Assembly: GCF_000372725.1 (NCBI RefSeq)
Contig: NW_005202428.1
Coordinates: 62,001-126,000, forward strand
From: Emiliania huxleyi CCMP1516
Taxonomy: Eukaryota
DNA: 64,000 nucleotides
Direction of reading: 5' to 3'
Part shown: in pieces, positions 17,629 through 63,276 of the stretch
How positions within the stretch are numbered: the first letter of the stretch is position 1
How the letters are laid out: each line of letters begins with the position of its first letter
Notes under the pieces: generated by a model
The model's database searches: none
Told to the model about the DNA's origin: nothing
The model's input: the letters and a program-made list of their open reading frames with translations, nothing else
Program-made: the position numbers and the translations under genes

Positions 17629-20600
17629 TCATGCGGCGCGCGGGAGCGCCCCCTCCTCCTCGAAACGGCGCAGGTAGGTGCGGAGCAGCGCCGGCGTCAC
17701 CGTCGGGCAGGGGTGGCCACGCTCCGCCAGGTGGGCCATGTGTGCCTTGGAGCCCGTCGAGCCGAACGAGGGCGGAGCTGCCTTGAGAGCGCCGAGCAGC
17801 CCGCGCAGAGGGTTGGGGTGCGGCGCCGTCTCGGGCTCCGCCTCCAGCGCTGCCTGCAGCACGGACAGCCCCGGGCCCTCTCGGGCAATCTCGGGTCCTC
17901 TCGGGCAATCTCGGGCCGGTTCTCGGGCCGATCTCGGGCGATCTCGGGCCACTTCCTCCAGCGCGGCCTGCCGCTCGGCCAGCCTATATCTCCCCATATC
18001 TCCCCATATCTGCCTGCAGCTTGGCCAGCCACGCCTCGTAGCTCGGTGCGACGGGCACGTCGAGCTCCGTGAGAAGGTCTTCGTACGGAAGCGAGGCGCC
18101 GTTGTCGAGAGTGAAGCAGGGCGTCTCGCAGCGCTCGCGAGATGCCGCCCCGCCGGCCTCCTGAGTGGCGATGCCCCCGATGGCGCCCGCCACCCAGTCC
18201 ACCGGAGACATGTCCACCCGAACGCGCATGTCTGGCAGCGGCGGAGCGAGGCCGAGCAGTCGGAAGCCAACCAGGTACCGGTTGAGTGAGTCTCCAATGT
18301 TGCAGTCTCCCGTCACAGAGTGGCCGCTGATGGCGCCCGGTCGGAAGATTGAGTAGCGCGCCGGCGCGCCGGCGGAGCGGGCGGCGGCGTTGGCGTTCTC
18401 AATCAGCCGCTCGGCGACCCACTTGCCTTGCACGTACCCGTTGGCACCGTCCACCGCCGCCATCTCGATCCGTGGCGGCGCCTGCGCGTCGTGGCAGGCT
18501 CGCCGTCCGCAGACGCCGGCGGTGGAGACAAATGCGACGTGCACCGGCTTACGGTTGGCAGCCTCCAGGCCGTGCGCGAGCCGGATCGCACGAACAAGAG
18601 AGCCGACGTTCGCCTCCTTCAGGCCGGCGTACGCGGTGGCGTGGTTGACGGCGGCGGCGTTGTGGATCACCAGACGCACCGAGGCGAGGCTCGCCGCTAC
18701 CACCCCATCAGAGAGCCCGAACCCTGGCAGCGTCACGTCGCCGGCCAGGCAGCGCAGCTTCGGCGAGCGAGCGGCGTCGCTCCACACTCCCCGCGCGCGC
18801 AAGGCGGCAGAGACGCGCTCAGCGGCCGCGGCGTCGGAGGCGGCGCGGGCAACGCAGACGACCGCCGGGCCTTTGTCGGCGGCGAGGAGGGAGGCGAGCA
18901 GGTGTGTGCCGAGGAAGCCCGTGGCACCGGTGAGAAGGAGGGCGTCGGCCTCGCCAAGCGGCACCGCGGGCCCGAAAGGCACTCCTCCCATCCCGGCGGC
19001 CAACTCGGGCGGCACCGCCGCCTCCGCCTCCCAGTCGTACGCCGCCGCCGCCACTGCCTCGGTCGTCTGCACGAGGTTGAGGATGGCCGCCATGGTGACG
19101 CCGCGCAGCAGCGCCTTTGGCGGCACGCCGCACCCGAACCGCTTGTTCAGGCTGCCGGCGAGGCGCGCGGCGGTGAACGAGTCCAGCTGCAGCGGCTTCG
19201 CGCCGAGGCCAGACACGTCGACGCCAAGCAGCGACCCGACCGCCGCCTCCACGGCACACATGTCGGCGGCGTTACCGTCGCCGGCGTCCGTTGTGGCGGG
19301 CGGCGCGAGCCGCGTCAGCACGCCGTCCACAAAGCTGAAGGCGGCGCCGGCGTCGGCGGCGGAGAGCTTGGGCATGCCGAGCATGGCGGCGAGCTTGACG
19401 CGCTGCACCTTGCCCGTCGGCCCTTTCGGCACCTTGTCTGCGTACACGATCGCCTCGGGGAGCCACTGCATTGAGAGCTCGCCGGTGTCGAGCCCGAAGC
19501 GATTCAGCTGTGCAAGGCTGACCTCTGCGCCGGGGTCGAGGACCGCGATGGCGACCACCGACTCACCAAGCTCCTCGTGTGGCGAGCCGAAGGCGAAGAG
19601 GCTCGACACTCCGGGGCAGCGAAGCAGCACATTGTCGATGGCGACGGGCGCAATCTTTTCGCCGCCACGGTTGACCTGCTCCTTCTTGCGGCCGGTGAGG
19701 AAGAGGTAGCCCTCCTCGTCGAGATAGCCGAGGTCGCCCGTGCGGAAGAAGCCGGATGGCGTGAAGGACTCAGCGTTGGCGTCGGGCCGGTTGTGGTAGC
19801 CCTAAGAAGGAAAGGAGTGACGTGATTGTGCCTCTCGAAGCGGGCGGTCGCGAAGGTCTGCGCCTTGGTGACGTTGCGGCCGCGCACGCTCACCTCGCCC
19901 ACCTCACCGTTCGGCAGCGCCGCCTCGCCCTCCTCCGGGAGGATTGCAATCTCGACGTTGGTCCCCTTGCCCACCGAGCCCGCCTTGTGCGGCCCGCGGC
20001 TCGGCAGCGGGTTGGAGGAGATCTGGTGGGCCGCCTCTGTCATCGCATACGCCTCGAGCACCGGAGCGCCAAACTCCTTCTCGAGCGACTGCAGGACCGA
20101 AGGCGGGAGCGAGGCGGAGCAGGACCGGATGAAGCGCACCTGCGGCCGGCCCGCGGCCGCATAGCTGTCCAGCCCTTTGAGCAGAAGCTGCTGCATGGTC
20201 GGCACCGCCGTGTACCAGGTGGCGCCGCACGCCGCAATGTCGCGCCAAAAGATCTCGACGCGGAACCCGGCGCAGTTGGCCGGCAGGATGACCTCGCCGC
20301 CAGAATAGAGGGTCGAGAAGAGTGCCGACATGAGGCCGTGCACCTAAAAGAGAATCGTGCGAATCACAAGGGCGACAGCTAAGAAACACCGACATCGGCC
20401 CGGGCACATGAAAGAGCGGCATCACCAGGTAGCACTTGTCGGCGGCCGTGAGGTCGTAGGTCGCCGTGATGTTTGCCTACAGGAGAAGGGCGTGCGCCTC
20501 AAAAACGAAAGTGTCAACCGGCTGTCCGCCGCCGATGAGGTTGCCGTCGTCGCGAGCATGTTTGCGTGCGAGAGCGGCACCTTGTGAGGAATCACCCGAG

Positions 20601-21775
20601 ATCACCCGAGATCGCCCGAGATCACCCGAGATCACCCGAGATCGCCCGAAATTGCCCGAGACTGCCCGAGATTGCCCGAGATCGCCCGAGACTGCCCGAG
20701 AGCGCGTGGTGCGAGAGGGGCGCACCCCCTTCGGCTTGCCCGTCGTGCCGCTGGTGTGAAGAAACAGGGCCGTGTCTTCCGGCTGCGCCTCGGGGATCGT
20801 CACGCCGCCGTCGGCCACGGCGCATCGCGCGCGCGCAGCGACGCTCGTGCCGCTGGCCGACGTGGCGACGCCTATCCACGGCTCGAGGCGTGAGAAGAGA
20901 CTCGACACAGCTCGCATCGGCGGCCACATCTCGGCTGCATCTCGGCTGCACCTCGGCTGCACCTCGGCTGCACCTCGGCTGCACCTCGGCTGCACCTCGG
21001 CTGCCTCTCGGCTGCAACCCGGCTGCACCTCGGCTGCACCTCGGCTGCCTCTCGGCTGCACCTCGGCTGCCTCTCGGCTGCACCTCGGCAGCACCTCGGC
21101 CGCCTCTCGGCTGCCTCTCGGCTGCATCTCGGTTGTATCTCGGCTAGCCCTCTCCGAGCGTGGCGACGCCAACCTTGGCCGCAACCTCCTCGGCGAGAGC
21201 GTGGCCTTCGGTCGGCACGACCAGGAACTTGGACGAGATGTTGAGCATGTCGTACCTGCGTGGACACGTCAGGGAAATGTCCGCGACTGTTCCGGGAGGC
21301 GGCGCGGGCGGATTGGGGCGGTGTCGCACTCGAACTCGGCGGCAGCGTACGACGCGTTGAGCGGCGCGGCGGTGGCGCCGAGCCACGTGACGGCGAGGAA
21401 GGAGATCACCGACTCTATCTGAGGCGGGTGGAAGGCCGGGCCGAGGTGGTGTGGCGAGGCGACGGCGGCGGCGGTGGTGACAGTCTCTGGAGGAGCAGCG
21501 AGGCACAGCAATGGCCGCCGCGCTGTCCGCTTGCGTTGCCGCGGCAGCAGAGTGGCCGCCAGAGCTGTGACACGCACGCGGCGAGGGAGGCGGACCTGGT
21601 TCCGGAAGCAGAGCGAGACCACGTCACCTCGCAAGACTCCGGCTCGGGCTAGCGCGACGGACACGGCTTTGACGTCGGCGCGCAGCGCGCCGCGCGTAAA
21701 GACCGGGCCCTCCGGCGTCACGCGGATGGCGGGCGCGGCGTCGTCGCCGGCCAGCAGGCGTTCCAAAGTCGCCAT
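17629..21775 (-). CDS. NRPS-like A-T-R carboxylic acid reductase (oxalate-CoA-ligase-like adenylation domain + carrier protein + thioester reductase)
   Basis: A domain: ALFLHTSGTTGKPKGVPL, MPLFHVHGL, TWYTAVPTM, RFIRSCSASL, EAYAMTEAAHQ, FFRTGDLG, NRGGEKI, PKGPTGKVQR. T domain: LQLDSFTAARL. R domain: LLTGATGFLGTHLL, IHNAAAVNH, GYVQGKWVAE, RPGAISG. The end of A, T and most of R lie in one continuous reading frame (17984-19630). Confidence 0.88.
20929..21145. repeat. Intronic 10-11 bp tandem repeats (CTCGGCTGCAC family); relatives at 13039-13112, 20591-20700, 43128-43198, 57990-58075 and 58273-58415
   Basis: Directly visible degenerate arrays, located in or next to inferred introns. Confidence 0.9.
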
Positions 21776-22834
21776 GTGTACCCCGCGTCTGTGTCTGAGG
21801 TTCGCGGTCGAGGCGCAAGGTGCCTCTTTATATTACCCAAAAGCTAGGCTACACAACGCCCTCTATGTTGGGTCAAGGCGGGCGCCTAGAAGAAAGCGCC
21901 GCCCCCCGAGGGGGAATCCCACCCGTACCCCGAGCCCCCGTCGAAGAGCGCGTCGAAAGCGTCGTCGCCTTCGTCGTACTCCTCCGCGTCAAAGCACCGG
22001 ACCGGCTCCCCCCGGCCGTGCTCCCTTGCCCAGCGCATCTGCCGAACATGCGCACGCTGCTCCTCGCGCGCCCTCTCCTCCGCGGCGCGCGGCGTCCACC
22101 CGGTGGACGCCAACAGCGACTCGAGCGTCGCGCGATAAATCGCCTCGCCTTCCTCGCGTGATACCACCTCGCCCGCCTCCTTATCTCTTTTCCGCGCCCG
22201 CCCCCGCAAGGCGCGCGATACACGCAACACGACTAACTGACGGATCCGCTCCTGACAGTCGCACGCGCCGCAGTCTTTGTTTGAAGTTAAAAGTCGAATC
22301 AGAGCGCCGTCGGCGCTGTCCCTCGTTTTCCTCCCACGGACCGCCCGTCCGGGACCGCTCCGGGACGCACGCCGGCGAAGCACCATCAAGCTGCTGTACG
22401 GCCCCGGCATCGCCTTCCCAGGCTTAGCTAGACTGAGAGATATTGTGGACATGAAAGATTGGTTTCTACAATATTACACTGACACTTTACCTCCCAGAGC
22501 TCGTCCCGGTCCGTCACGGCCATCCTCGGCCTCCGGAGGGCCCCCGGCCGCGGCGCGGTGCGGCGGCGTCACAAATCCGACCACAGAGCACCGAGCCGCG
22601 CGCCCCAAACGACCCAGGCGGCGAGTAGTCGTCCTCGAACCTTCGTCATGTAGTCGCCCATAGTTAGCGCCCGTCCGTCCCCACCTCCGTCGCCGCGCAA
22701 ATGAAAAAGAAAAAGAAAAAGAAACGAAAAGAAAAACGAAAGCAAATCCATTGCGTAAACGGCGTCACAAAGCCCGCCGGTTTTGATCGACAATCGTGAG
22801 ATTGACCGCCGTCGACCAGAGATATCTCTCCACC

Positions 22835-23986
22835 ATGGGCTGCGCCGGGTCGACTCTGCGGTCGGGCGCGTCATTTGAGGACAGCCGCCTCGCGGCGATT
22901 GAGGATAGTCGCTTCCATGAGGTGGGCCATCACGCCCAGTTTGAGGACAGCCGCCTCGCGGCGATTGAGGATAGTCGCTTCCATGAGGTGGGCCATCACG
23001 CCCAGTTTGACGAAGGCGGTCGCTTCAAGCAGCTGCCGCCCGCCAATGATGATGCCAAGCTGCTCGTTGCCGATCACCCCTCACTGGGCGTGATACGGCT
23101 CGACTACGACTACCCGCCCGCCCTCGGTGACGTTGACCACCCGGGCTCCTTCTACTACGACGTGTTCTATCGTGTCGTGCCCGGCCTGACCTTTGAGTTA
23201 TGCCAGAGTGGCGAGTTGCCTGACGACGTCAAGCAGCGTTTCATTGACGCCATCACGTGGCTCGACGAGCAGGGTGTGGCGGGCATCACAGGCGACTGCG
23301 GCTTCTTCATGTACTTTCAGGCCCTCGCACGGTCCGTCACCAGCAAGCCCGTCTTCATGTCGTCGCTCTGCCAGCTGCCCGCCGTTGTATGTGCCTACGC
23401 CGCCGACGAGCAGATCGCGCTCTTCACCGCCAACGGCGAGTCGCTCAAGCCCATGCGTGAGATCATCAAGAAGGAGTGCGGCGTGGACCCGGACGACACG
23501 CGCTTCGTCATCGTCGGCTGCGAGGACGTGCCTGGCTTCGAGGCAGTCGCGAATGGTGACCGCGTCGATGTCGACTCCGTCGTGCCGCACCTCGTCCGCC
23601 TGGCAGAGGACACCGTTGCCAAACACGCGGGCACGGCCAAGCCGATCCGCGCCATCCTGTTTGAGTGCACGGAGCTTCCGCCCTACTCGGACGCCGTGCG
23701 CGCGGCGACCCGGCTGCCCGTCTTCGATAGCATCACGTGCTGCAACTCCATGCTCGCGTCGCTCATGGACAACCCGCGCTTCGGTGTCAACAACTGGCAC
23801 CTCTCCTGGGACGGCGCGCACACCGCTCACCGCTTTGGCGACAACGTGCCGCCGCATCTGAAGGGCAAACTCGTCAACAGGGAGCACCCCGAGAACATCG
23901 CAAGGTGGAACGCGAGTCTCGCGGAGCGGTCGTCGTTTTCTAGCGCTCAGCAAGAAAGCATCGGGCGAGGATCGCGCAAGCTGTGA
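22835..23986 (+). CDS. Alma2: Alma-family dimethylsulfoniopropionate (DMSP) lyase, Asp/Glu racemase superfamily, 383 aa, Alma2-like
   Basis: Intronless ORF starting at CACCATGG. It has the Alma signature motifs SLGVIRLDYDYPPALGDVDHPGSFYYDVFYRVVPGLTF, GITGDCGFF, KPVFMSSL, AILFECTELPPYSDAVRAATRLPVFD and DNPRFG, with both racemase-type catalytic Cys motifs. The MGCAGST N-terminus matches my recollection of E. huxleyi Alma2. Confidence 0.93.
   Translation: MGCAGSTLRSGASFEDSRLAAIEDSRFHEVGHHAQFEDSRLAAIEDSRFHEVGHHAQFDEGGRFKQLPPANDDAKLLVADHPSLGVIRLDYDYPPALGDVDHPGSFYYDVFYRVVPGLTFELCQSGELPDDVKQRFIDAITWLDEQGVAGITGDCGFFMYFQALARSVTSKPVFMSSLCQLPAVVCAYAADEQIALFTANGESLKPMREIIKKECGVDPDDTRFVIVGCEDVPGFEAVANGDRVDVDSVVPHLVRLAEDTVAKHAGTAKPIRAILFECTELPPYSDAVRAATRLPVFDSITCCNSMLASLMDNPRFGVNNWHLSWDGAHTAHRFGDNVPPHLKGKLVNREHPENIARWNASLAERSSFSSAQQESIGRGSRKL
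22874..23010 (+). repeat. Perfect in-frame 66-bp tandem duplication in the Alma 5' coding region
   Basis: 22874-22939 is identical to 22940-23005, encoding FEDSRLAAIEDSRFHEVGHHAQ twice. Confidence 0.95.
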
Positions 23987-24349
23987 CCCGTGTCACTCTG
24001 TCTATCTGTCTCGGGTCAGTCATTGTCTCTGGTGCTGGGGGGGTCGGGACCCCCCCCCTAGCAGCAGAGCTCTGGTGCTGGGCGGGGTGCTGGCAAGTGG
24101 CAGCTCTCGCTCTGTGTACGGAGTTACCGACAGCTCTGGAGCGATTGTTTTTCGCCGGCTTGCGCCGCCCAAACGCCAAAGTCGTCGGCAAGGTGCTGCA
24201 TATACATGAAATGGCTCGAGGGCGAGCTGCATGGCTTCCACCACGTCACTGCCCGCCATTGCGGCGACGCGTCGCGGCGCGCCCGGCGGACCTGACGGTT
24301 TTGCCGGCGGGGCGACGGGCGGCGGCGGCGTGCGCGCGCGCCCGTGCGC

Positions 24350-24930
24350 GTTTTCGAAAAAGAACTCTTAAAACACAAGCCTCTCTCACAGCACACACTG
24401 GCACGACACAAGGGCGCAGACTGGCGCGGACTGGCACACACACCGGCTCACCACCGGAGCCGCCTAAGCGACTCCGTTAAGAACGGCAATGCACTCCGCA
24501 CCATGCACAATGCCGCTCTCCCCGCACGCTAGCTCGTTCACCGTCTGCCACGCCACAGCGGTGTGGAGGACGACAGACAGACGCTGCATCTGCAGGCCGT
24601 CGCTCGTTGGCGCCTCGCCGCCGCCCCCCCTCTCGCCGCCGCTCCGCTCGTGGCCGCCCCATCCCCTGTCAATCCCGCCGCCTCCCCTGTCAATCCCCCG
24701 CACCACCGCCGCCACCGCCTCGCGCGTTTAGCGGGGGGTCAAAACTCAAAAGGAGGACAGCCTATAAAGAAAAGAATTTAAACAAAACAACTCTAAAGAA
24801 AAGAATTTAAACAAAACAACTCTCTCTCACAGGACACAGGCTCGACACAGGTGCGAACTGGCGCGTGCTAGTACTATCACCGGCACACCACCGGAGCCGC
24901 CTAAGCGACTCCGTTAAGAACGGCAATGCA
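24350..24930 (+). repeat. Local direct duplication between Alma and the methyltransferase gene
   Basis: CACCACCGGAGCCGCCTAAGCGACTCCGTTAAGAACGGCAATGCA occurs at ~24449 and ~24886. TAAAGAAAAGAATTTAAACAAAACAACTC occurs in tandem at ~24765-24822. Confidence 0.85.
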
Positions 24931-25012: not shown

Positions 25013-26104
25013 ATGCACGATGGAGAGACGATGGAGAGTGACGGCGAGGCATGGTGGGAGCTCGACATGGACGAGGTGGGCCTCGGCACCGACGGCGTGC
25101 CGCTCCAGAGCCTCGAGGCGGCTGTGGTGCCGCCGCCGCGCTGGCCATTCAACCAGGCGAGTGGCTACGGCGCGCCGCTCGACTGCGCCGCGCGCTGCCG
25201 CGGTGGCGACCACGCGAGCGTGTGCGCGCTGCTCGCGCACTCGCCACGCCTGCTGGTGGCGCTCGGGCCGTGTGGACTGCTCAGCCTCGCGTCACGGCTG
25301 CTGCGGCAGTTGGTGGTGTACGATGTTCCCGGCATGCCGCTCGTGCGCGTCGGCGCCGCGCCGCGCCGAGTCGAGCGTGGTTCCGCGACGCGCTACTTTG
25401 GCGACGGCGGGTACGTGATGGTATCGCCGCGCGGCTGCGACGTGTGCTACTCGTACGGCGTCTCGCAGGAGGTGAGCTTCGACGCCGAGCTGGTGACGCA
25501 GCATGGGTTGAGGCTGGTGCGCCAATTCGATATGACGCTCGGCGGTGCCTACACGCCGCCGCTGCCGCAGTTTACCTTCTACGACGAGGGCCTCGGTGCG
25601 TCGCGCGACGCCGCGGCGCGCCTCGACACGCTCGAGAGCCACGTGCGCCGCTTCGGCGAGCTCGACGTGCGAAAGGTCCTGCAGTGCGACGTGGAGGGCG
25701 CAGAGTGGGAGGCGCTGTGGGCGTGCCCGGGCGCCGTGCTCGATTCATTCGATCACCTGGTCATCGAGTTTCACGGGCTGGATGAGCTGGCCTCCATGGG
25801 CTTCCACGCGGCGCTGCTCGAGAAGCTCAATGTTCACTTCGTCGTCGTGCACGTCCACGTCAACAACCACGGGCTCGACGTTGATGCTGACGCCGCCGCG
25901 CAAAAGTTCACCGAAGTGCTCGGCACGCTCGTGCCACGCACGCTCGAGGTGAGCTACCTCAGTCGCCGCCTCGTCCCCGATGCCGCGCGCGTTGCGAGGG
26001 CGGCCAAGGCGTTCCCGACGCCGCTTGACTATCCAAATGTGCACGCGCCGGACGTCATGCTCAACGTGTGGCCGTGGGCCCTCCCGGCCGCCGCCCAAAC
26101 GTGA
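25013..26104 (+). CDS. FkbM/Methyltransf_22-family SAM-dependent methyltransferase, intronless
   Basis: Motifs GDGGYVM, CYSYGVSQEVSFD, LQCDVEGAEWEAL, HLVIEFH, VHVHVNN, LEVSYL and PTPLDYPN. Confidence 0.82.
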   Translation: MHDGETMESDGEAWWELDMDEVGLGTDGVPLQSLEAAVVPPPRWPFNQASGYGAPLDCAARCRGGDHASVCALLAHSPRLLVALGPCGLLSLASRLLRQLVVYDVPGMPLVRVGAAPRRVERGSATRYFGDGGYVMVSPRGCDVCYSYGVSQEVSFDAELVTQHGLRLVRQFDMTLGGAYTPPLPQFTFYDEGLGASRDAAARLDTLESHVRRFGELDVRKVLQCDVEGAEWEALWACPGAVLDSFDHLVIEFHGLDELASMGFHAALLEKLNVHFVVVHVHVNNHGLDVDADAAAQKFTEVLGTLVPRTLEVSYLSRRLVPDAARVARAAKAFPTPLDYPNVHAPDVMLNVWPWALPAAAQT

Positions 26105-26349
26105 AAAGCGCACCACTAAACGCCCAAAGGCATTTCACGACTTGTCTGTGGTCTAGTGCCAGGTACGGCTCTAACCTAAAAGCACGCTACACACAATCAC
26201 ATCCGTGCTCTGTACGGCTTTTAGCCGGTAGACTCTACACATACAGTATACATCCGACCAATATCTAGACGTACGATTCAACACGCAAACGTGCCAAACA
26301 AAACGCGTGCACCTGCACGCCCTTTCGCTCACGCCCTTTCGCAAACGCG

Positions 26350-35331: not shown

Positions 35332-38300
35332 ATGAACGGCACGAATTGCCCGCCTGCGGCCGGCAAACTGCTCGTGGACGGACAGGACGCGCGGACGAAG
35401 CAGGAGATCCTCCAGATGATCGTCCAGTACCTGCACGACGAGGGCTACACTGCGGCGGTGAGCCTGCGCGCCTCTCCCGCCCCAAGCCTCCGAGGCTTGC
35501 AATTCCTGAGGCTGTCCCACGCCTCGACCGCTGCTCCGCTCGCCGCCACGCCGGTGCCACGCCACGAGCACGCCCACGACGCGTCCACGACGCGTCCTTT
35601 GCCAAACCGCGGTAGGTCGCGACGGTGCAGGACGAGGCCAACGTGCGCTCGCTCGATGCGCAGCGCGCGCGGACGGCGGTGCGGCGGCTCCGGCGCGCGG
35701 TGCTCGACGGCGATTGGCCCGAGATGGAGAAGCTCGTGCCCCGTGCCATCGCCGGCACGTGCGAGCAGAAGGCCTGCCTAGACGCCGTGCACCGGCTGCA
35801 GCTCCCAGTTGGTTCCTGACAGAATGGCGGTGCATGGAAGGTGTTCCTGTACGCCGCGTACCGGCTGCAGTTTCTCGAGCTGCTGGACGGAGGCGAGCAG
35901 CACAAGGCGTTCACGCAGCTGACGAAGCGGCTCAAGCCACTCGAGAGCTGCGCGCCGTCGCCCGCAGAGTTCCGGGACCTCTGCTACCTCCTCACCTGCT
36001 CTGTGAACGGCGTCTATTCACACCTCCAGCTGTGAACAGGTTCCGCGACCTCTGCTACCTCCTCACCTGCCGCTCCGTGCACGAGGTGTGGGCAGACGCC
36101 GGGCGCGGCGTGCGCGGGATGTCGCGAGTCCTGACTGCTGACTGAGAAACCAGGTGGTGCGGGACTGGGAGGGGGCGGCGGCGGCGCGCGAGTCACTGCT
36201 GCAGCAGCACGAGGTGTTTCACACACTCCTTCACACACTCCTTCACACACTCCTCCACACACTCCTTCACACACTCCTTCACACACTCCTTCACACACTC
36301 CTTCACACACTCCTTCACACACTCCTCCACACACTCCTTCACACACTCCTCCACACACTCCTTCACACACTCCTTCACACACTCCTTCACACACTCCTTC
36401 ACACACTCCTCCACACACTCCTTCACACACTCCTTCACACACTCCTTCACACACTCCTTCACACACTCCTTCACACACTCCTTCACACACTCCTTCACAC
36501 ACTCCTCCACACACTCCTTCACTCCTTCACACACTCCTTCACACACTCCTCCACACACTCCTTCACACACTCCTTCACACACTCCTTCACACACTCCTTC
36601 ACACACTCCTTCACACACTCCTTCACACACTCCTTCACACACTCCTCCACACACTCCTTCACACACTCCTTCACACACTCCTTCACACACTCCTCCACAC
36701 ACTCCTCCACACACTCCTCCACACACTCCTTCACACACTCCTCCACACACTCCTTCACACACTCCTTCACACACTCCTTCACACACTCCCACACCGCTCA
36801 CCCACGCGCACTGGGCCATGCACTTTTCATGCCGTGCGGCTCCTGTCGTCCAAACGTGGAGTCGCGAGGGACAGCCCGGCCCTTGCCCCACCACCTCGTG
36901 CGTTTACCTTACCTTACCCCACCTTAGGTGCTTCTGGAGCTGCAGCAACCTGAGGCAGCCGAAGAGGTGTGTGTGTGTGTCGCGCCGTGCGCGCGGCGGC
37001 GGCGGGGGGGGGGGGGGGGGGGGGGGGGCTCTTCCCGAGGGCCCCCCTCTTGGAGCCCCCCCCCCCCCCCCCAAAAAGCTGCAAACAACCCCGGGGAAAG
37101 ACGGTTATACCGCCCCCCCCCTTCCCCCATGCGTTAGAGGGCAGGCGGGAGGCGGACTCCCATCACCTCGGTACCTGGCCCGTGGACGGTGGAGGGAATC
37201 TTACCAAAAGTGCNNNNNNNNNNNNNNNNNNNNNNNNNNNNNNNNNNNNNNNNNNNNNNNNNNNNNNNNNNNNNNNNNNNNNNNNNNNNNNNNNNNNNNN
37301 NNNNNNNNNNNNNNNNNNNNNNNNNNNNNNNNNNNNNNNNNNNNNNNNNNNNNNNNNNNNNNNNNNNNNNNNNNNNNNNNNNNNNNNNNNNNNNNNNNNN
37401 NNNNNNNNNNNNNNNNNNNNNNNNNNNNNNNNNNNNNNNNNNNNNNNNNNNNNNNNNNNNNNNNNNNNNNNNNNNNNNNNNNNNNNNNNNNNNNNNNNNN
37501 NNNNNNNNNNNNNNNNNNNNNNNNNNNNNNNNNNNNNNNNNNNNNNNNNNNNNNNNNNNNNNNNNNNNNNNNNNNNNNNNNNNNNNNNNNNNNNNNNNNN
37601 NNNNNNNNNNNNNNNNNNNNNNNNNNNNNNNNNNNNNNNNNNNNNNNNNNNNNNNNCTCGGCTAGCTCCTCTGCGACTACTCGCTGCCGCTGCTGCCGAA
37701 CCGCGCCCGCCTCTGCCTCCGAGGCCACAGGGGCGGAGTCAAGAGCGTCGCGTGGCTGCAGGTCGGCGGCGGCGGCGGCGCCGAGACTACTGGTGTCTTA
37801 TAGGCTTGAATCCTTCAGATGGGTATGCTACATATCTGTGCATGCATTATGCAGGCGAGCTGCTCGTGTCGGGCTCGAACGCCCCCACCGTACGGCTGTG
37901 GGAGGCTGGCCCGCTTGCGGTGTTTGTGCGGTGGGGGGGTGGGGGGGGGGGTGAGGATGAGCTTGCCAATGCCACTCTAGTGAAGCTCTCGCAATAGGTT
38001 GGGCCGCCTGCGGTCGCCGCGGGTGGCAGCGACGCGCGCGAGTCTGCGGGCGGCAGCGAGTCTGCGGGCGTGTCTGCGGGCGGGTGCGGCTGGGCCGGGT
38101 CGGTGTGCGTGCTGCAGCACCCGTCTCGCGTGTGGGCGGTCGCCACGCGGGGCGGGGGGGGAGGTGGCGTGCCGCTGCTCGCTTCGGCGTGCGCGGACGG
38201 CCGGGTGCGGCTGTGGGACGCGCGCGACCCTAGAAGCGGAACACGTGCTCTTGCACTCCGACTAGCGCTCCAGAGGACATGTACATGTACATGTTGTGCA

Positions 38301-42915: not shown

Positions 42916-45900
42916 TGTTGGCGCTGTTGGCGCTGTTGCCGCCGCCGCCGCTGTTGCCGCCGCCGCCGCTGTTGCCGCCGCCGCCGCTGTTGCCGCCGCC
43001 GCTGTCCCAAACGCTGCTGCCGTGGCCAGCTCGTTCCGCTTGTCGCCCCGAGAATCCCTGGGAAGAGGAGAGGGAGGATGGGGTGGTGGGGAGGGGGGCG
43101 GGTCACACGGGCGCAGCGGGGCCTGTACCTCGGCTACATCTCGGCTACATCTCGGCTACACTCGGCTACACTCGGCTACATCTCGGCTACATCTCGGCGG
43201 ATCTCGCCTCGGGGAGAAGCAGCCGCGTCCCGTCCTTGAGGGCAGAGGTGGGGCGCAGCGCCGGGTACCTGAAGGGGGTCCAGCCCGCCGCCGAACCGCT
43301 AAGGAAGGGGGCGGGTGAGGGGCGGAGGCGGGGGCGCACCGTCCCCCGCCCTTCCCTCACTGGGCACCGGAGTGGAACTTCTCTAACACAGCCGAAAGAG
43401 ACTGTGGAGGCGGGGGCGGAGGAGGTGCGGTGGTGTGCACCGAGACACGTTGAGCGCCGCCAGCCGCGCAGGGGCGATGCCGAGCGCCTGAGGACAACGC
43501 CGCTGCACGTCACCAGCGGCAGGCCCGTTCTCAGCCGCGAGTGCGCGAGGGGGAGGCGCCGCTGCGATCGCGTCGACCTTCTCGCCCTCGCGAGCGATGT
43601 ACTCGTCGTCGTCGTCCTCCTCCTCCCCCTCCCCCTCCCCCTCCCCCTCCCCCTCCTCCGCCTCCGCCTCCACCCTCTCCTTCTCCTTCTCCGCCGCCGC
43701 GCCGCGCTTGACCGGCCTCGCACCCCTCTTCGCCTGCTGCGACCCTCGCCTTGCGGCGCCGCCGCTCGCCGCCGGCCGTTNNNNNNNNNNNNNNNNNNNN
43801 NNNNNNNNNNNNNNNNNNNNNNNNNNNNNNNNNNNNNNNNNNNNNNNNNNNNNNNNNNNNNNNNNNNNNNNNNNNNNNNNNNNNNNNNNNNNNNNNNNNN
43901 NNNNNNNNNNNNNNNNNNNNNNNNNNNNNNNNNNNNNNNNNNNNNNNNNNNNNNNNNNNNNNNNNNNNNNNNNNNNNNNNNNNNNNNNNNNNNNNNNNNN
44001 NNNNNNNNNNNNNNNNNNNNNNNNNNNNNNNNNNNNNNNNNNNNNNNNNNNNNNNNNNNNNNNNNNNNNNNNNNNNNNNNNNNNNNNNNNNNNNNNNNNN
44101 NNNNNNNNNNNNNNNNNNNNNNNNNNNNNNNNNNNNNNNNNNNNNNNNNNNNNNNNNNNNNNNNNNNNNNNNNNNNNNNNNNNNNNNNNNNNNNNNNNNN
44201 NNNNNNNNNNNNNNNNNNNNNNNNNNNNNNNNNNNNNNNNNNNNNNNNNNNNNNNNNNNNNNNNNNNNNNNNNNNNNNNNNNNNNNNNNNNNNNNNNNNN
44301 NNNNNNNNNNNNNNNNNNNNNNNNNNNNNNNNNNNNNNNNNNNNNNNNNNNNNNNNNNNNNNNNNNNNNNNNNNNNNNNNNNNNNNNNNNNNNNNNNNNN
44401 NNNNNNNNNNNNNNNNNNNNNNNNNNNNNNNNNNNNNNNNNNNNNNNNNNNNNNNNNNNNNNNNNNNNNNNNNNNNNNNNNNNNNNNNNNNNNNNNNNNN
44501 NNNNNNNNNNNNNNNNNNNNNNNNNNNNNNNNNNNNNNNNNNNNNNNNNNNNNNNNNNNNNNNNNNNNNNNNNNNNNNNNNNNNNNNNNNNNNNNNNNNT
44601 ATTCTCCGAGGAAGCCTACGTGCCGGAGTGCGCCACCCTCGGGTGTGTGGGGGGGGAGGGGAGGAGGTCTGTCTCGGGCAAGAGTATGCAGAGTACCGTG
44701 TGAGCACAAGGGGTGGGAACACAGCGAATGCAGCGGGAGGCAGTCGTCCTCTCTAGCGCTTGGATATTAGACAAGACTACGTGTGTCCGCTTCTAGGCGA
44801 AGCAAGCCTCCAGTGAAGTCGCGCGCCCGAGCGCCAAGACGGTGCAGAGAGACCCCTCCTCCTCCGCCTCCGCCGCCGCCCCCCTCCACGGCTGCGGCGG
44901 CGTACGAGCCGTCGCTGTCGCGCAACACAACCTCGTTTGCCCAAAACGCGAGCGGCTTGATCCTACAGGAAGCCTCTAGGAAAGGTCTAGGAAAGGTCCA
45001 GGAAAAGTCTAGGGAGACGCGAGCGGCTTGAGCCTCACGCGGCCGCCGCTCGAGCGCCGCGCCGGCGCGCCCGCCCGCGCCTAGTACCGCACCTCCAGAA
45101 GTCTCGAACCCAGCGTGGGTTCGGTCCCGTGGTCGGTGTGGTAGCGGCGGACCGCCTCCGCCACAAGCGGTGCAGCGCGCTGCCGCACCGCCGCCGCCGC
45201 ACCGACGCCGCTCGCCGCGCCGGCGCCGGCCGAGGAGGCGGAGGCGGGGCCGGTAGCAGCGGGGGAGGCAGCGGGGGCGGGAGCGGGGGCAGGAGTGGCG
45301 GCAGAAGAGGCGGCAGAAGAGTCGGCGGGCTTGGAGGCGGCCTTGGAAGCAGGCTTGGAAGCAGGCGTGGCAGCGGAAGACGCGGCGGGCTTGGCGGCTG
45401 GCTTGGTGCGCCCCTTGCGCAGTGGCTGCTGCCGCCCGGCGCCTGCCCGCGCCGCGCCCGCACCGACTCGCTTGCCGGGCGGCCTCTGCGGCTGTTGCTG
45501 CGGCGGCCGCGGCTCCTCCAGCTCGGGCTCGTCGTCCTTGTCCTCGTCTTCGTCCTCGTCTTGCCGCCGCCGTTGCTGCTGCTGCCGCTGCTGCCGCTGC
45601 AGCCGCTGCTGCCGCTGCTGCCGCTGCTCGTCGCCTTGCTCGTGCTCGCGATGGCGCCCCTCCGCCTCCTCCGCCTCTTCCGCCTCCTCCGCCTCCGCCG
45701 CCTTCGGCACTCCCTCCTCCTCCTCCTTNNNNNNNNNNNNNNNNNNNNNNNNNNNNNNNNNNNNNNNNNNNNNNNNNNNNNNNNNNNNNNNNNNNNNNNN
45801 NNNNNNNNNNNNNNNNNNNNNNNNNNNNNNNNNNNNNNNNNNNNNNNNNNNNNNNNNNNNNNNNNNNNNNNNNNNNNNNNNNNNNNNNNNNNNNNNNNNN

Positions 45901-47909
45901 NNNNNNNNNNNNNNNNNNNNNNNNNNNNNNNNNNNNNNNNNNNNNNNNNNNNNNNNNNNNNNNNNNNNNNNNNNNNNNNNNNNNNNNNNNNNNNNNNNNN
46001 NNNNNNNNNNNNNNNNNNNNNNNNNNNNNNNNNNNNNNNNNNNNNNNNNNNNNNNNNNNNNNNNNNNNNNNNNNNNNNNNNNNNNNNNNNNNNNNNNNNN
46101 NNNNNNNNNNNNNNNNNNNNNNNNNNNNNNNNNNNNNNNNNNNNNNNNNNNNNNNNNNNNNNNNNNNNNNNNNNNNNNNNNNNNNNNNNNNNNNNNNNNN
46201 NNNNNNNNNNNNNNNNNNNNNNNNNNNNNNNNNNNNNNNNNNNNNNNNNNNNNNNNNNNNNNNNNNNNNNNNNNNNNNNNNNNNNNNNNNNNNNNNNNNN
46301 NNNNNNNNNNNNNNNNNNNNNNNNNNNNNTCAGGGGGGGGGAGCCTAGAGAATTTTGTTTTTGCCACCACCATGTCCCTTTGCGGGTGAGTATGGATAAG
46401 GGCTTTTCTTATGAAATTTCCGGCGGTTTCCCCCCCCATATTTCTCACAGCAAATGCTGAATGAGCACGCTCCGTCTACCAGCTCGACGGGCCGATGGTC
46501 CAGCGGGGAGCCTGCGCGGTCGCGGGCGAGAAGCCGGCGCCGCATGCTCCGTGCTGGTCCATCGGCCCGTCGAGCTGGTAGACGGAGCCTGCTCATTCAG
46601 CACTTGCGTGCGTGAGTGCAGAGTGGGGGAGCCGTCGGGCTGGCAGAGACGGAGAGCCTGTTCACTCATCAGCCAGCCATGAGCGAACTCTGAGTGGCCA
46701 GACCAGAGCGTCCGGGCAGGCAGACGGAGCCTGACGCGGTGCGCAATGTGCGGCCGTCGACCCTTGTGGCGATGGCCGTGGAGTGCCACGGCTTGCGGCC
46801 CCGCGGCTGCCCCTTGCGCCAGCCCTCGACGGCGAGCGAGACGGCGCCGTCAGTGGAGGCGCCCAGCCGCTTCAGGTACCAGCCAGTCAGCACGACGGGG
46901 GGCTTGCTCGAGCCTCCTCCTCCGCCGCGCGCGCTGCCCGTGCCGACTGCTGCTGCCGGCGCCGCCTCCGCACCCGCCCTCGGCTGCGGCTGCTGCGGCT
47001 GCGGCTGCTGCTGCTGCGGCGGCTGCGGCTGCTGCTGCGGCTCGCGGCGCAGGAAAGCGAGCAGCTCTGCCTCGCTGCCCTTGTTCCGACCACCGCCCGC
47101 CCCCGTCGCCGCGGCGCCGCTGGCGTTGGCGGCGGCGTTGGCGGCAGCGGCGGCGGTGGCGACGGGCGGTGGCGGTAGCGGCGGCGGCGGCGGCAGGCGC
47201 TGGCGCGGCGTGGCGCCTGCGCCGTCGGTGGAGAGCGAGTCGTTCGAGAAGGGCCCGCCTGCTCGCAGGTGCAGACACCGGCCGTTGGGGAGGGCCCGAC
47301 CCAGGGCCCAACCCGCCCTTCTCCCCTCGCCCCCCTCCCCCCCTCGCCCCCCCCGTGCCATCTCAGGCCGTCGCTACCTCCCGCTCTTGCGAACCCACAC
47401 CCCGCGGGTTCTAGCATATGGTTGGGTGGGGGGCCAATTGCCTCCCAGTTTTACCCCCCCCCCCCCCCCCACCCACCCACCCACCCACACACCCGCACAC
47501 ACCCTCTCCCCCTCCCTCTCCTTCCCCCTCTCTCTCCTCTCTCTCTGCCACGCGCGCCCGAAAACGGCTCGGTCGGCGGAAGACCACCCGGAGGCGTGCA
47601 GCTACCGAAGGGAGTGGTCGCGAGGCCCCCGCGGGCGTCGGGTGAGGGCGCGCGGCCGTGCGGCGGACGGCGCGACGCCAGCGGCGACGCCCCCGCCGCG
47701 CCGAAGGCCGGTGGCCCGAGCGGTGGGCCTGACCCGCCGGAGGAGGAAGCGGCGCGGAAGGCGGGCGGCGGCGGCGGAGGGGGCGGCATCGCCGCGCCAG
47801 GCCGGAACAGCGTCGCCTTGGGCATCGGCGAGAGCGATGGCAGCGACGCGGCGCCGAGCGGAGCCGCAGCCGACGCTCCGCCGCCGAGCGAGGGCGCGAG
47901 CCCCGCCAT
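42341..47909 (-). CDS. KNL2: KNL2/Mis18BP1-like centromere protein (SANTA domain + CENP-C-like motif), multi-exon, spans two gaps; 3' extent uncertain
   Basis: SANTA domain: VVLTGWYLKR...LAVEGW...PWHSTAIATRVDGRTLRTAS|GSVYQLDGPMD...AGFS (~46900-46510). The CENP-C motif RRSSGGRVR|IKPLAFWANEVV is formed by removing GC-AG intron 44963-45033. Confidence 0.72.
46455..46602. repeat. Inverted repeat with ~50-bp arms
   Basis: TGCTGAATGAGCACGCTCCGTCTACCAGCTCGACGGGCCGATGGTCCAGC pairs with the segment ending at 46602 with 2 mismatches. Confidence 0.9.
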
Positions 47910-61984: not shown

Positions 61985-62403
61985 GACCCCCGCCGCCCTT
62001 GAGCGTGCCGGCGCGGATCACCGTCCACTCGACGCCCGCGGCGCCGCTCATCCTCGCGACCTCCGCCTCCATCGCCTTATAGCTCGCCACCGCTTGTGCT
62101 TTGGGGGCCCAGTCTTTTCTACGGCCCAGTCGTCTTGGTATGATATTGGCGGCAGAGGCGAAGAAGCCCATGCCCTCGCCGTTCAGGTAGCGGCTCATCA
62201 CGGCGACGCGCTTCAGCGCGCTGGCTGCTCGGCTGCAGGAACGTCTCGAGCACCGTCTTCCCAAAGGCGCCCTCGTTGTCGATCGCGGCGTTGAAGCTGG
62301 CGCGCGGGTCGCAGGCCTGCTCGCCGCGCGTAGCACTCGGGGGAGGCGCTCGAGCCTCGAGCGGCGCAGCTGTCGGTCAACCCCGCGGCGACCGCCGCCA
62401 CCA
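61985..62403 (-). pseudogene. Frameshifted fragment of an atypical-SDR/NAD(P)-binding protein
   Basis: LKRVAVMSRYLNGEGMGFF...YKAMEAEV...WTVIRAGTLKGGG is preceded by out-of-frame IDNEGAFGKTVLETFL and breaks off abruptly. Confidence 0.45.
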
Positions 62404-63276
62404 TTTTCCCCGTGTTTTCTTTTTGCCGCTAGCGTCTAGGCCTCGGCTACACATCTCTAGCCCACATCGCAAGGAGGAAGGAGTGCACATGGCATCGCTG
62501 CGTACATGTCGATGGGGGTGAGACTGAGAGATGGGGGGCCGCGACTATCGCAATCGCAGGTACCTTATGGACACTTTCTTCCGATGCGCGACGCCGAGGG
62601 TGGGTGTGGGTGTGGNNNNNNNNNNNNNNNNNNNNNNNNNNNNNNNNNNNNNNNNNNNNNNNNNNNNNNNNNNNNNNNNNNNNNNNNNNNNNNNNNNNNN
62701 NNNNNNNNNNNNNNNNNNNNNNNNNNNNNNNNNNNNNNNNNNNNNNNNNNNNNNNNNNNNNNNNNNNNNNNNNNNNNNNNNNNNNNNNNNNNNNNNNNNN
62801 NNNNNNNNNNNNNNNNNNNNNNNNNNNNNNNNNNNNNNNNNNNNNNNNNNNNNNNNNNNNNNNNNNNNNNNNNNNNNNNNNNNNNNNNNNNNNNNNNNNN
62901 NNNNNNNNNNNNNNNNNNNNNNNNNNNNNNNNNNNNNNNNNNNNNNNNNNNNNNNNNNNNNNNNNNNNNNNNNNNNNNNNNNNNNNNNNNNNNNNNNNNN
63001 NNNNNNNNNNNNNNNNNNNNNNNNNNNNNNNNNNNNNNNNNNNNNNNNNNNNNNNNNNNNNNNNNNNNNNNNNNNNNNNNNNTGCTCCTTGGGTTCTTGA
63101 TCTTGTTTTCGTTTTGCTAGGGGGGGAACCCGGGCGCACGCCGAACTATCCCTCGGAGAGACCCCATTAGGCCCGTAGGAACGCCGAGTCCCCGGGGCAC
63201 ACTGTCTTTATATCCGACACACGAACGCGGGGGGCTTTCTGTGCTCAGCCGGTGCCGGAGCGGAGCCGGCAGCCAC

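Follow-up and report, generated by a model that had tools for sequence, protein, structure and literature searches.

Alma3 of Emiliania huxleyi: an intact, transcribed gene for a likely DMSP lyase with a predicted N-terminal acylation site

Introduction

The reaction proposed for Alma1, a DMSP lyase of Emiliania huxleyi, begins with abstraction of a proton next to the carboxylate and proceeds by beta-elimination to DMS and acrylate (PMC5395565), and cysteines C108 and C265 of this enzyme are called critical (PMC10349084). Sym-Alma cleaves DMSP and, less well, DMSOP in vitro (PMC10686828). Alma7 is described as not experimentally proven. Shemi et al. provide ten motifs that set Alma homologues apart from bacterial racemases, treat the bacterial homologues as an outgroup, and list the site of DMSP cleavage in the cell among the unknowns of cellular function (PMC10349084).

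Here we describe an Alma gene of E. huxleyi CCMP1516. Alma3 has been catalogued since 2015, so the discovery of the gene is not news. What is added is a modest lead, a predicted MGxxxS start that recurs family-wide and for which we found no record in print.

Identity of the gene

The window, meaning the whole 64-kb stretch of DNA that was analysed, contains no second Alma copy detectable by tblastn. The product of the one present (Table 1) is virtually certain to be E. huxleyi Alma3 (Swiss-Prot R1G6M4, 'DMSP lyase 3'), already named and catalogued. Compared by eye with Alma3 as printed in supplement 3 of PMC10349084, the protein agrees letter for letter over its whole sequence, including five sites that differ in Alma6. 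The exact protein is also present in NCBI and UniRef, in a 12-member cluster with one named member, 'Dimethylsulfoniopropionate lyase 6' (R1F493, EMIHUDRAFT_111561). This is Alma6, to which the computed identity is 378 of 383 residues. The enzyme name of Alma3 appears to be homology-based, because our literature search found no assay of Alma3 or Alma6.

Alma6 has the same N-terminus and repeat, and differs from Alma3 by Q193H, I210L, V250L, I355V and K382E. In the sequencing runs described below, Q193H occurs without I210L (run X12), K382E occurs alone (X6), and I210L, I355V and K382E occur without Q193H (X8 and X13); the UniRef cluster members mix the differing sites likewise. Such reassortment fits allelism. 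Shemi et al. 2023 considered Alma3 and Alma6 most likely to be one gene (PMC10349084), and Alma6 is most likely an allele of Alma3.

Table 1. Features of the Alma3 locus, in window coordinates.
Feature	Position	Strand	Remarks
Alma3 (Alma3/6) coding sequence	22835..23986	+	One exon, 383 aa; unspliced in transcript-type contigs
Start context CCACCATGG	22830..22838	+	First ATG past the in-frame TGA at 22784 upstream
MGCAGS, predicted N-myristoylation site (G2, S6) with possible S-acylation at C3	22835..22852	+	Sequence, family enrichment
Exact 66-nt tandem repeat, 2.1 copies	22874..23010	+	22-aa unit from residue 14
Asp/Glu/hydantoin racemase-fold catalytic domain	23072..23773	+	Residues 80-313; predicted model, PRK07475 E=1.9e-48
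Cys155 (GDCGF)	23297..23299	+	Corresponds to Alma1 C108 and Sym-Alma C111; alignment to L002, numbers by eye
Cys278 (ECTELP)	23666..23668	+	Corresponds to Alma1 C265; alignment to L002, number by eye

Catalytic domain and DMSP lyase activity

The first-pass annotation had assigned the protein to the Alma family and to a racemase fold, and the motifs, the UniRef cluster, Foldseek and VIA-align bear this out. The motifs that it named are present: LGVIRLDYDYPPALGD from residue 84, GDCGF from residue 153 (C155) and ECTELP from residue 277 (C278). Scored as identity to the consensus strings rather than with the authors' matrices, the ten motifs of Shemi et al. occur in order over residues 85-300; eight score higher than any of 300 shuffles, and the other two (identities of 5/9 and 5/7) do not. 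The protein has the features by which Shemi et al. 2023 recognise a DMSP lyase homologue (DLH), namely the racemase domain, the two cysteines, the ten motifs and a grouping with eukaryotic DLHs apart from bacterial PRK07475. Of 185 homologous domains, 176 retain C155 and 163 retain C278, and both are present in the two Alma1/2-type loci. The two cysteines occur throughout the superfamily and do not identify the substrate.

An AlphaFold2 model built from 44 sequences (mean pLDDT 76, pTM 0.64) has a confident core and low-confidence arms. Foldseek matched it to arylmalonate decarboxylase and to glutamate, aspartate and hydantoin racemases. The top 15 rows from VIA-align (Z 11.8-16.2, residues ~80-313) are racemase-superfamily or like-fold chains with 7-16% identity (best rmsd 3.0 over 203), and Z falls to 7.9 at row 16. 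Profile-search matches consisting of summed polyubiquitin repeats and one ribosomal protein were discarded as artefacts. Sharing the racemase fold does not give the substrate.

We favour, with a probability of roughly two in three, an intact and transcribed Alma3 gene whose product is likely a DMSP lyase and is likely tethered to the cytosolic side of a membrane by a fatty acid at its N-terminus. Residues 80-313 are predicted to form a two-lobed racemase fold. By analogy with Alma1 and Sym-Alma, the cleft that separates the lobes would hold a cysteine that takes a proton from the DMSP carbon beside the carboxylate, and beta-elimination would then release DMS and acrylate. G2 would be myristoylated, possibly with palmitoylation of C3, and the arm of 60-80 residues, which carries the 22-residue unit once or twice, could act as the tether. 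DMSP lyase activity, taken by itself, is probable by analogy with the characterised enzymes; the similarity of Alma3 is 66.9% to the active Sym-Alma versus 45.7% to Alma1 (PMC10349084).

The main alternative is an Alma-family enzyme with a principal substrate other than DMSP and little or no DMS release. DMSOP, a different onium compound or a carboxylate might be the substrate, or the reaction might be of the isomerase type. Synthetic paralogues from E. huxleyi, Phaeocystis antarctica, Acropora and Symbiodinium have been assayed, and most showed no activity, the active ones according to a review being Alma2 and one Symbiodinium protein only (PMC5395565). The homologues from P. antarctica are reported to lie nearest to Alma7, the sister of Alma3, so that negatives are on record for the Alma3/6/7 side of the family as well. 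Alma1 and Sym-Alma cleave DMSOP as well (PMC10686828), five divergent Alma genes are kept in E. huxleyi (PMC10349084), and proteins with this fold include racemases, a decarboxylase and an isomerase. Against this, the motifs round both cysteines of Alma3 are, in PMC10349084 and by eye, nearer to those of active Sym-Alma than Alma1's are, and purified Alma is more efficient on DMSP than on DMSOP (PMC10686828). We regard a different main substrate as unlikely and retain DMSP lyase as the preferred function. The question reaches beyond E. huxleyi: surveys count environmental Alma homologues as DMSP lyases, and most of these homologues resemble the Alma3/6/7 side, for which that assumption rests on one assayed protein, Sym-Alma.

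Phylogeny and homologues

A search for homologues returned 648 proteins, of which 120 were listed. A quick IQ-TREE phylogeny with SH-aLRT support only was built from 83 of 185 domains; a 66% identity filter had dropped the other 102, and 24 short domains had been removed earlier. Sym-Alma, Alma4, Alma5 and true racemases are not among its sequences, and Sym-Alma and Alma4 were compared by eye or through the published table. The Alma1/2 branch is 3.7 changes per site long, and Alma3/6 is sister to P0042 (support 99), which by eye has two differences from Alma7.

That the protein is a true amino-acid racemase, or a bacterial PRK07475-group member rather than an Alma, is very improbable. Its fold matches are racemases and its only Pfam and NCBIfam matches are to Asp_Glu_race (PF01177; 18.3 bits, E=0.002, cut-off 31) and PRK07475 (165 bits, cut-off 231), but both scores are under their cut-offs, identity to solved chains is 7-20%, and phmmer found no match in the PDB at E<=1. 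Identity to three PRK07475-type bacterial proteins is 28-32%, and these branch apart on their own (97), whereas Alma3 appears to nest among 78 Alma-type rows (fork 80) and has the Alma-discriminating motifs.

Scanning prokaryote genomes with the single protein confirmed 0 of 106 candidates, and scanning with an alignment confirmed 8 of 29. Alma-type proteins are encoded on four bacterial MAG contigs (Alphaproteobacteria or Pseudomonadota; L003:1008-1838, L004:2932-3804, L005:2989-3810 and L006:2998-3843). They have 43-48% identity to Alma3 and form one clade (100) among eukaryotic sequences, not with PRK07475; the neighbouring ORFs of the first three look bacterial by eye. They are candidate bacterial Alma lyases, or candidates for a transfer. 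Among the matches listed, many close homologues (P0013-P0131) have two tandem racemase domains, and P0086 and P0127 are EF-hand fusions, hinting at calcium control in some lineages.

Gene structure, neighbours and transcription

The first-pass description of an intronless 383-codon ORF holds in the ORF listing and translation and in the contigs, none of the 8 runs examined showing a splice joint inside it. GC content by codon position is 0.65 at the first, 0.44 at the second and 0.82 at the third. The surroundings had been called otherwise intron-dense, which is true upstream only, because run X8 reads through 25200-26138 with no splice joint, so that the downstream ORF at 25013-26104 is apparently intron-free too. 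This ORF (+, 363 aa) has a weak FkbM-family methyltransferase match (E=7e-4).

The upstream neighbour is divergent (-), extends from 21775 to ~17900, and begins ~1.06 kb from Alma3. It is an intron-rich adenylation/carrier/thioester-reductase (A-T-R) gene with an A domain nearest to FadD7/PRK05852-type CoA ligases, followed by PP-binding and NAD_binding_4 domains, and two of its introns are confirmed by joints. Its introns are filled with 10-11-nt tandem repeats (20591-20705, 20930-21145 and 17872-18011). The product looks like a carboxylic-acid-reductase-type enzyme; its position next to Alma3 is the sole basis for guessing that it might act on acrylate or a related acid and be linked to DMSP. 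The flanks of Alma3 (21840-22822 and 24030-24930) are patchworks of genome repeats with many loose contig ends, and within them 24358-24493 and 24799-24930 are 82% alike. Elsewhere the window has sharp low-GC islands (25-55% versus ~65%) at 37001-38000, 44001-47000 and 62001-63000.

Among the runs listed, 18 of 22, from 7 studies, contained at least half of the sampled words; only one run is recorded as RNA. Eight were placed on the window, as assembled contigs, so neither strand nor level can be read from them. The Alma3 ORF is covered in all eight. Single contigs span ~22981-24035 or more in X2, X6, X8, X13 and X15, one contig covers 22981-23835 in X12, and X1 and X7 cover the ORF in pieces. 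Of the four runs placed over the upstream neighbour, three (X2, X6 and X8) have its two introns spliced, which indicates that these contigs derive from mRNA. A transcript of Alma3/6 from strain PLYM219 (361 aa, one repeat copy) is listed as expressed (PMC10349084). A ~380-fold rise in high light in 'Isochrysis sp. C' was set aside, as it comes from one replicate with an ambiguous label mapping; the listed 3/6/7-like protein has an N-terminus unlike that of Alma3.

Strain variants within residues 81-320 comprise 7 silent and 3 missense changes, compared with 2 silent and 7 missense outside, although the numbers are small. The lack of an intron, the repeated DNA on both flanks and the 81% identity to Alma7 might suggest a silent retrocopy or a decaying Alma7 duplicate, but this is extremely improbable: the frame is open in every allele seen, in cluster members and runs alike, coverage was found in all the runs examined, and the PLYM219 transcript is on record as expressed.

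N-terminal region

The N-myristoylation consensus pairs Gly2 with Ser or Thr at position 6. Alma3 has both residues at its start, and its hydropathy (19-residue windows peak at 1.45, and at 0.07 over the first 30) indicates no signal peptide or membrane helix, so the sequence has the features of N-myristoylated proteins. Alma3 is likely N-myristoylated, as predicted from these features.

The first-pass annotation had taken the MGC start as a myristoylation and palmitoylation signal, and family-wide enrichment of the motif supports that suggestion. We surveyed the predicted starts of 119 listed homologues outside the cluster, 78 of which appear complete; the remaining 41 were set aside. Among these listed matches, 22 of the 78 complete N-termini start with MG, and Ser or Thr occupies position 6 in 18 of the 22 versus 7 of the 56 other starts (Fisher p=1e-8). 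The corresponding residue at internal MG sites is Ser or Thr in 6 of 61 cases, and about one MGxxx[S/T] start is expected from composition. The 18 proteins, again among the matches listed, represent 14 unlike N-terminal families, and nine have Cys at positions 3-5. By sequence reading, Alma1, Alma2 and Alma4 also have an MGxxxS start, and Alma7 and Sym-Alma do not. Because these two proteins and 60 of the 78 complete N-termini among the listed homologues lack it, the anchor is not required for activity.

A literature search, with most subscription journals outside its coverage, found no report of myristoylation for an Alma protein or DMSP lyase; its sole match concerned viral sphingolipids.

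N-acylated proteins face the cytosol. The earlier proposal that the anchor could keep enzyme and substrate apart is unwarranted, since an anchor facing the cytosol need not on its own hold the enzyme away from DMSP. If real, the family-wide motif offers a simple handle, through G2 and C3, on the cellular site of DMSP cleavage. A wider proposal is tentative and on balance doubtful: N-terminal myristoylation, often with an adjacent palmitoylated Cys, would be an unreported signal in much of the Alma family (Alma1, Alma2, Alma3/6, Alma4 and about a quarter of close homologues), and Alma3/6 would be an active, membrane-tethered second source of DMS in E. huxleyi. Its anchor would then determine the place and time of DMSP cleavage, with cleavage at the cell surface on grazing or lysis as one example.

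A 66-nt tandem duplication, which had gone unmentioned in the first pass, encodes two 22-residue units within the low-confidence N-terminal arm (pLDDT ~40-54). One copy of the unit is present in P0007 and in the PLYM219 Alma3/6 record, so copy number is one or two among strains.

Comparison with known Alma proteins and racemases

A motif scan of metagenome contigs gave an Alma2-type locus (L001, its exons read as Alma2) and an Alma1-type locus (L002), both labelled by eye against the printed Alma sequences. Alma3 has 31.0% identity (80/258) to the former and 29.1% (76/261) to the latter; a separate alignment with the Alma2 type gave 32% over 171. Alma1 and Alma2 share both catalytic cysteines and the MGxxxS start (MGNCTS and MGSASS) with Alma3, but have an intron in the domain and ECTEAGG where Alma3 has no intron and ECTELPP. 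The 79-nt intron of L001 has GC..AG ends, and the matching 73-nt intron of L002 has GT..AG ends. Alma3 falls outside the Alma1/Alma2 subgroup (29-31% identity, ECTELPP, separate branches), and there is practically no chance that it is Alma2, an allele of it or a close paralogue, as first annotated: GDCGF, ECTE and the MG start are held in common, but identity is 31% over 258 columns, the Alma1/2 branch is distant and long, loci of that type carry the domain intron, the sequence matches Alma3 by eye, and Alma7 is its sister. The misnaming matters because activity is reported, in the literature as available, for Alma1, Alma2 and Sym-Alma only.

Alma7 (R1CW23) is the nearest neighbour, with 81% identity over 309 aa and a sister branch with SH-aLRT support of 99 (as P0042). 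Its N-terminus is short, with neither MGxxxS nor the repeat, and it has SDCG where Alma3 has GDCG. The Asp/Glu/hydantoin racemases and bacterial PRK07475 proteins have the fold and the two-cysteine layout in common with Alma3, but identity to solved members of the superfamily is 7-20%, and Alma3 adds the N-terminal arm and a C-terminal DNPRFG extension. Sym-Alma of Symbiodinium clade A1 (P0DN22), biochemically shown to be an active DMSP and DMSOP lyase, has by eye the same motif set as Alma3 round both cysteines and differs in having no MGxxxS start.
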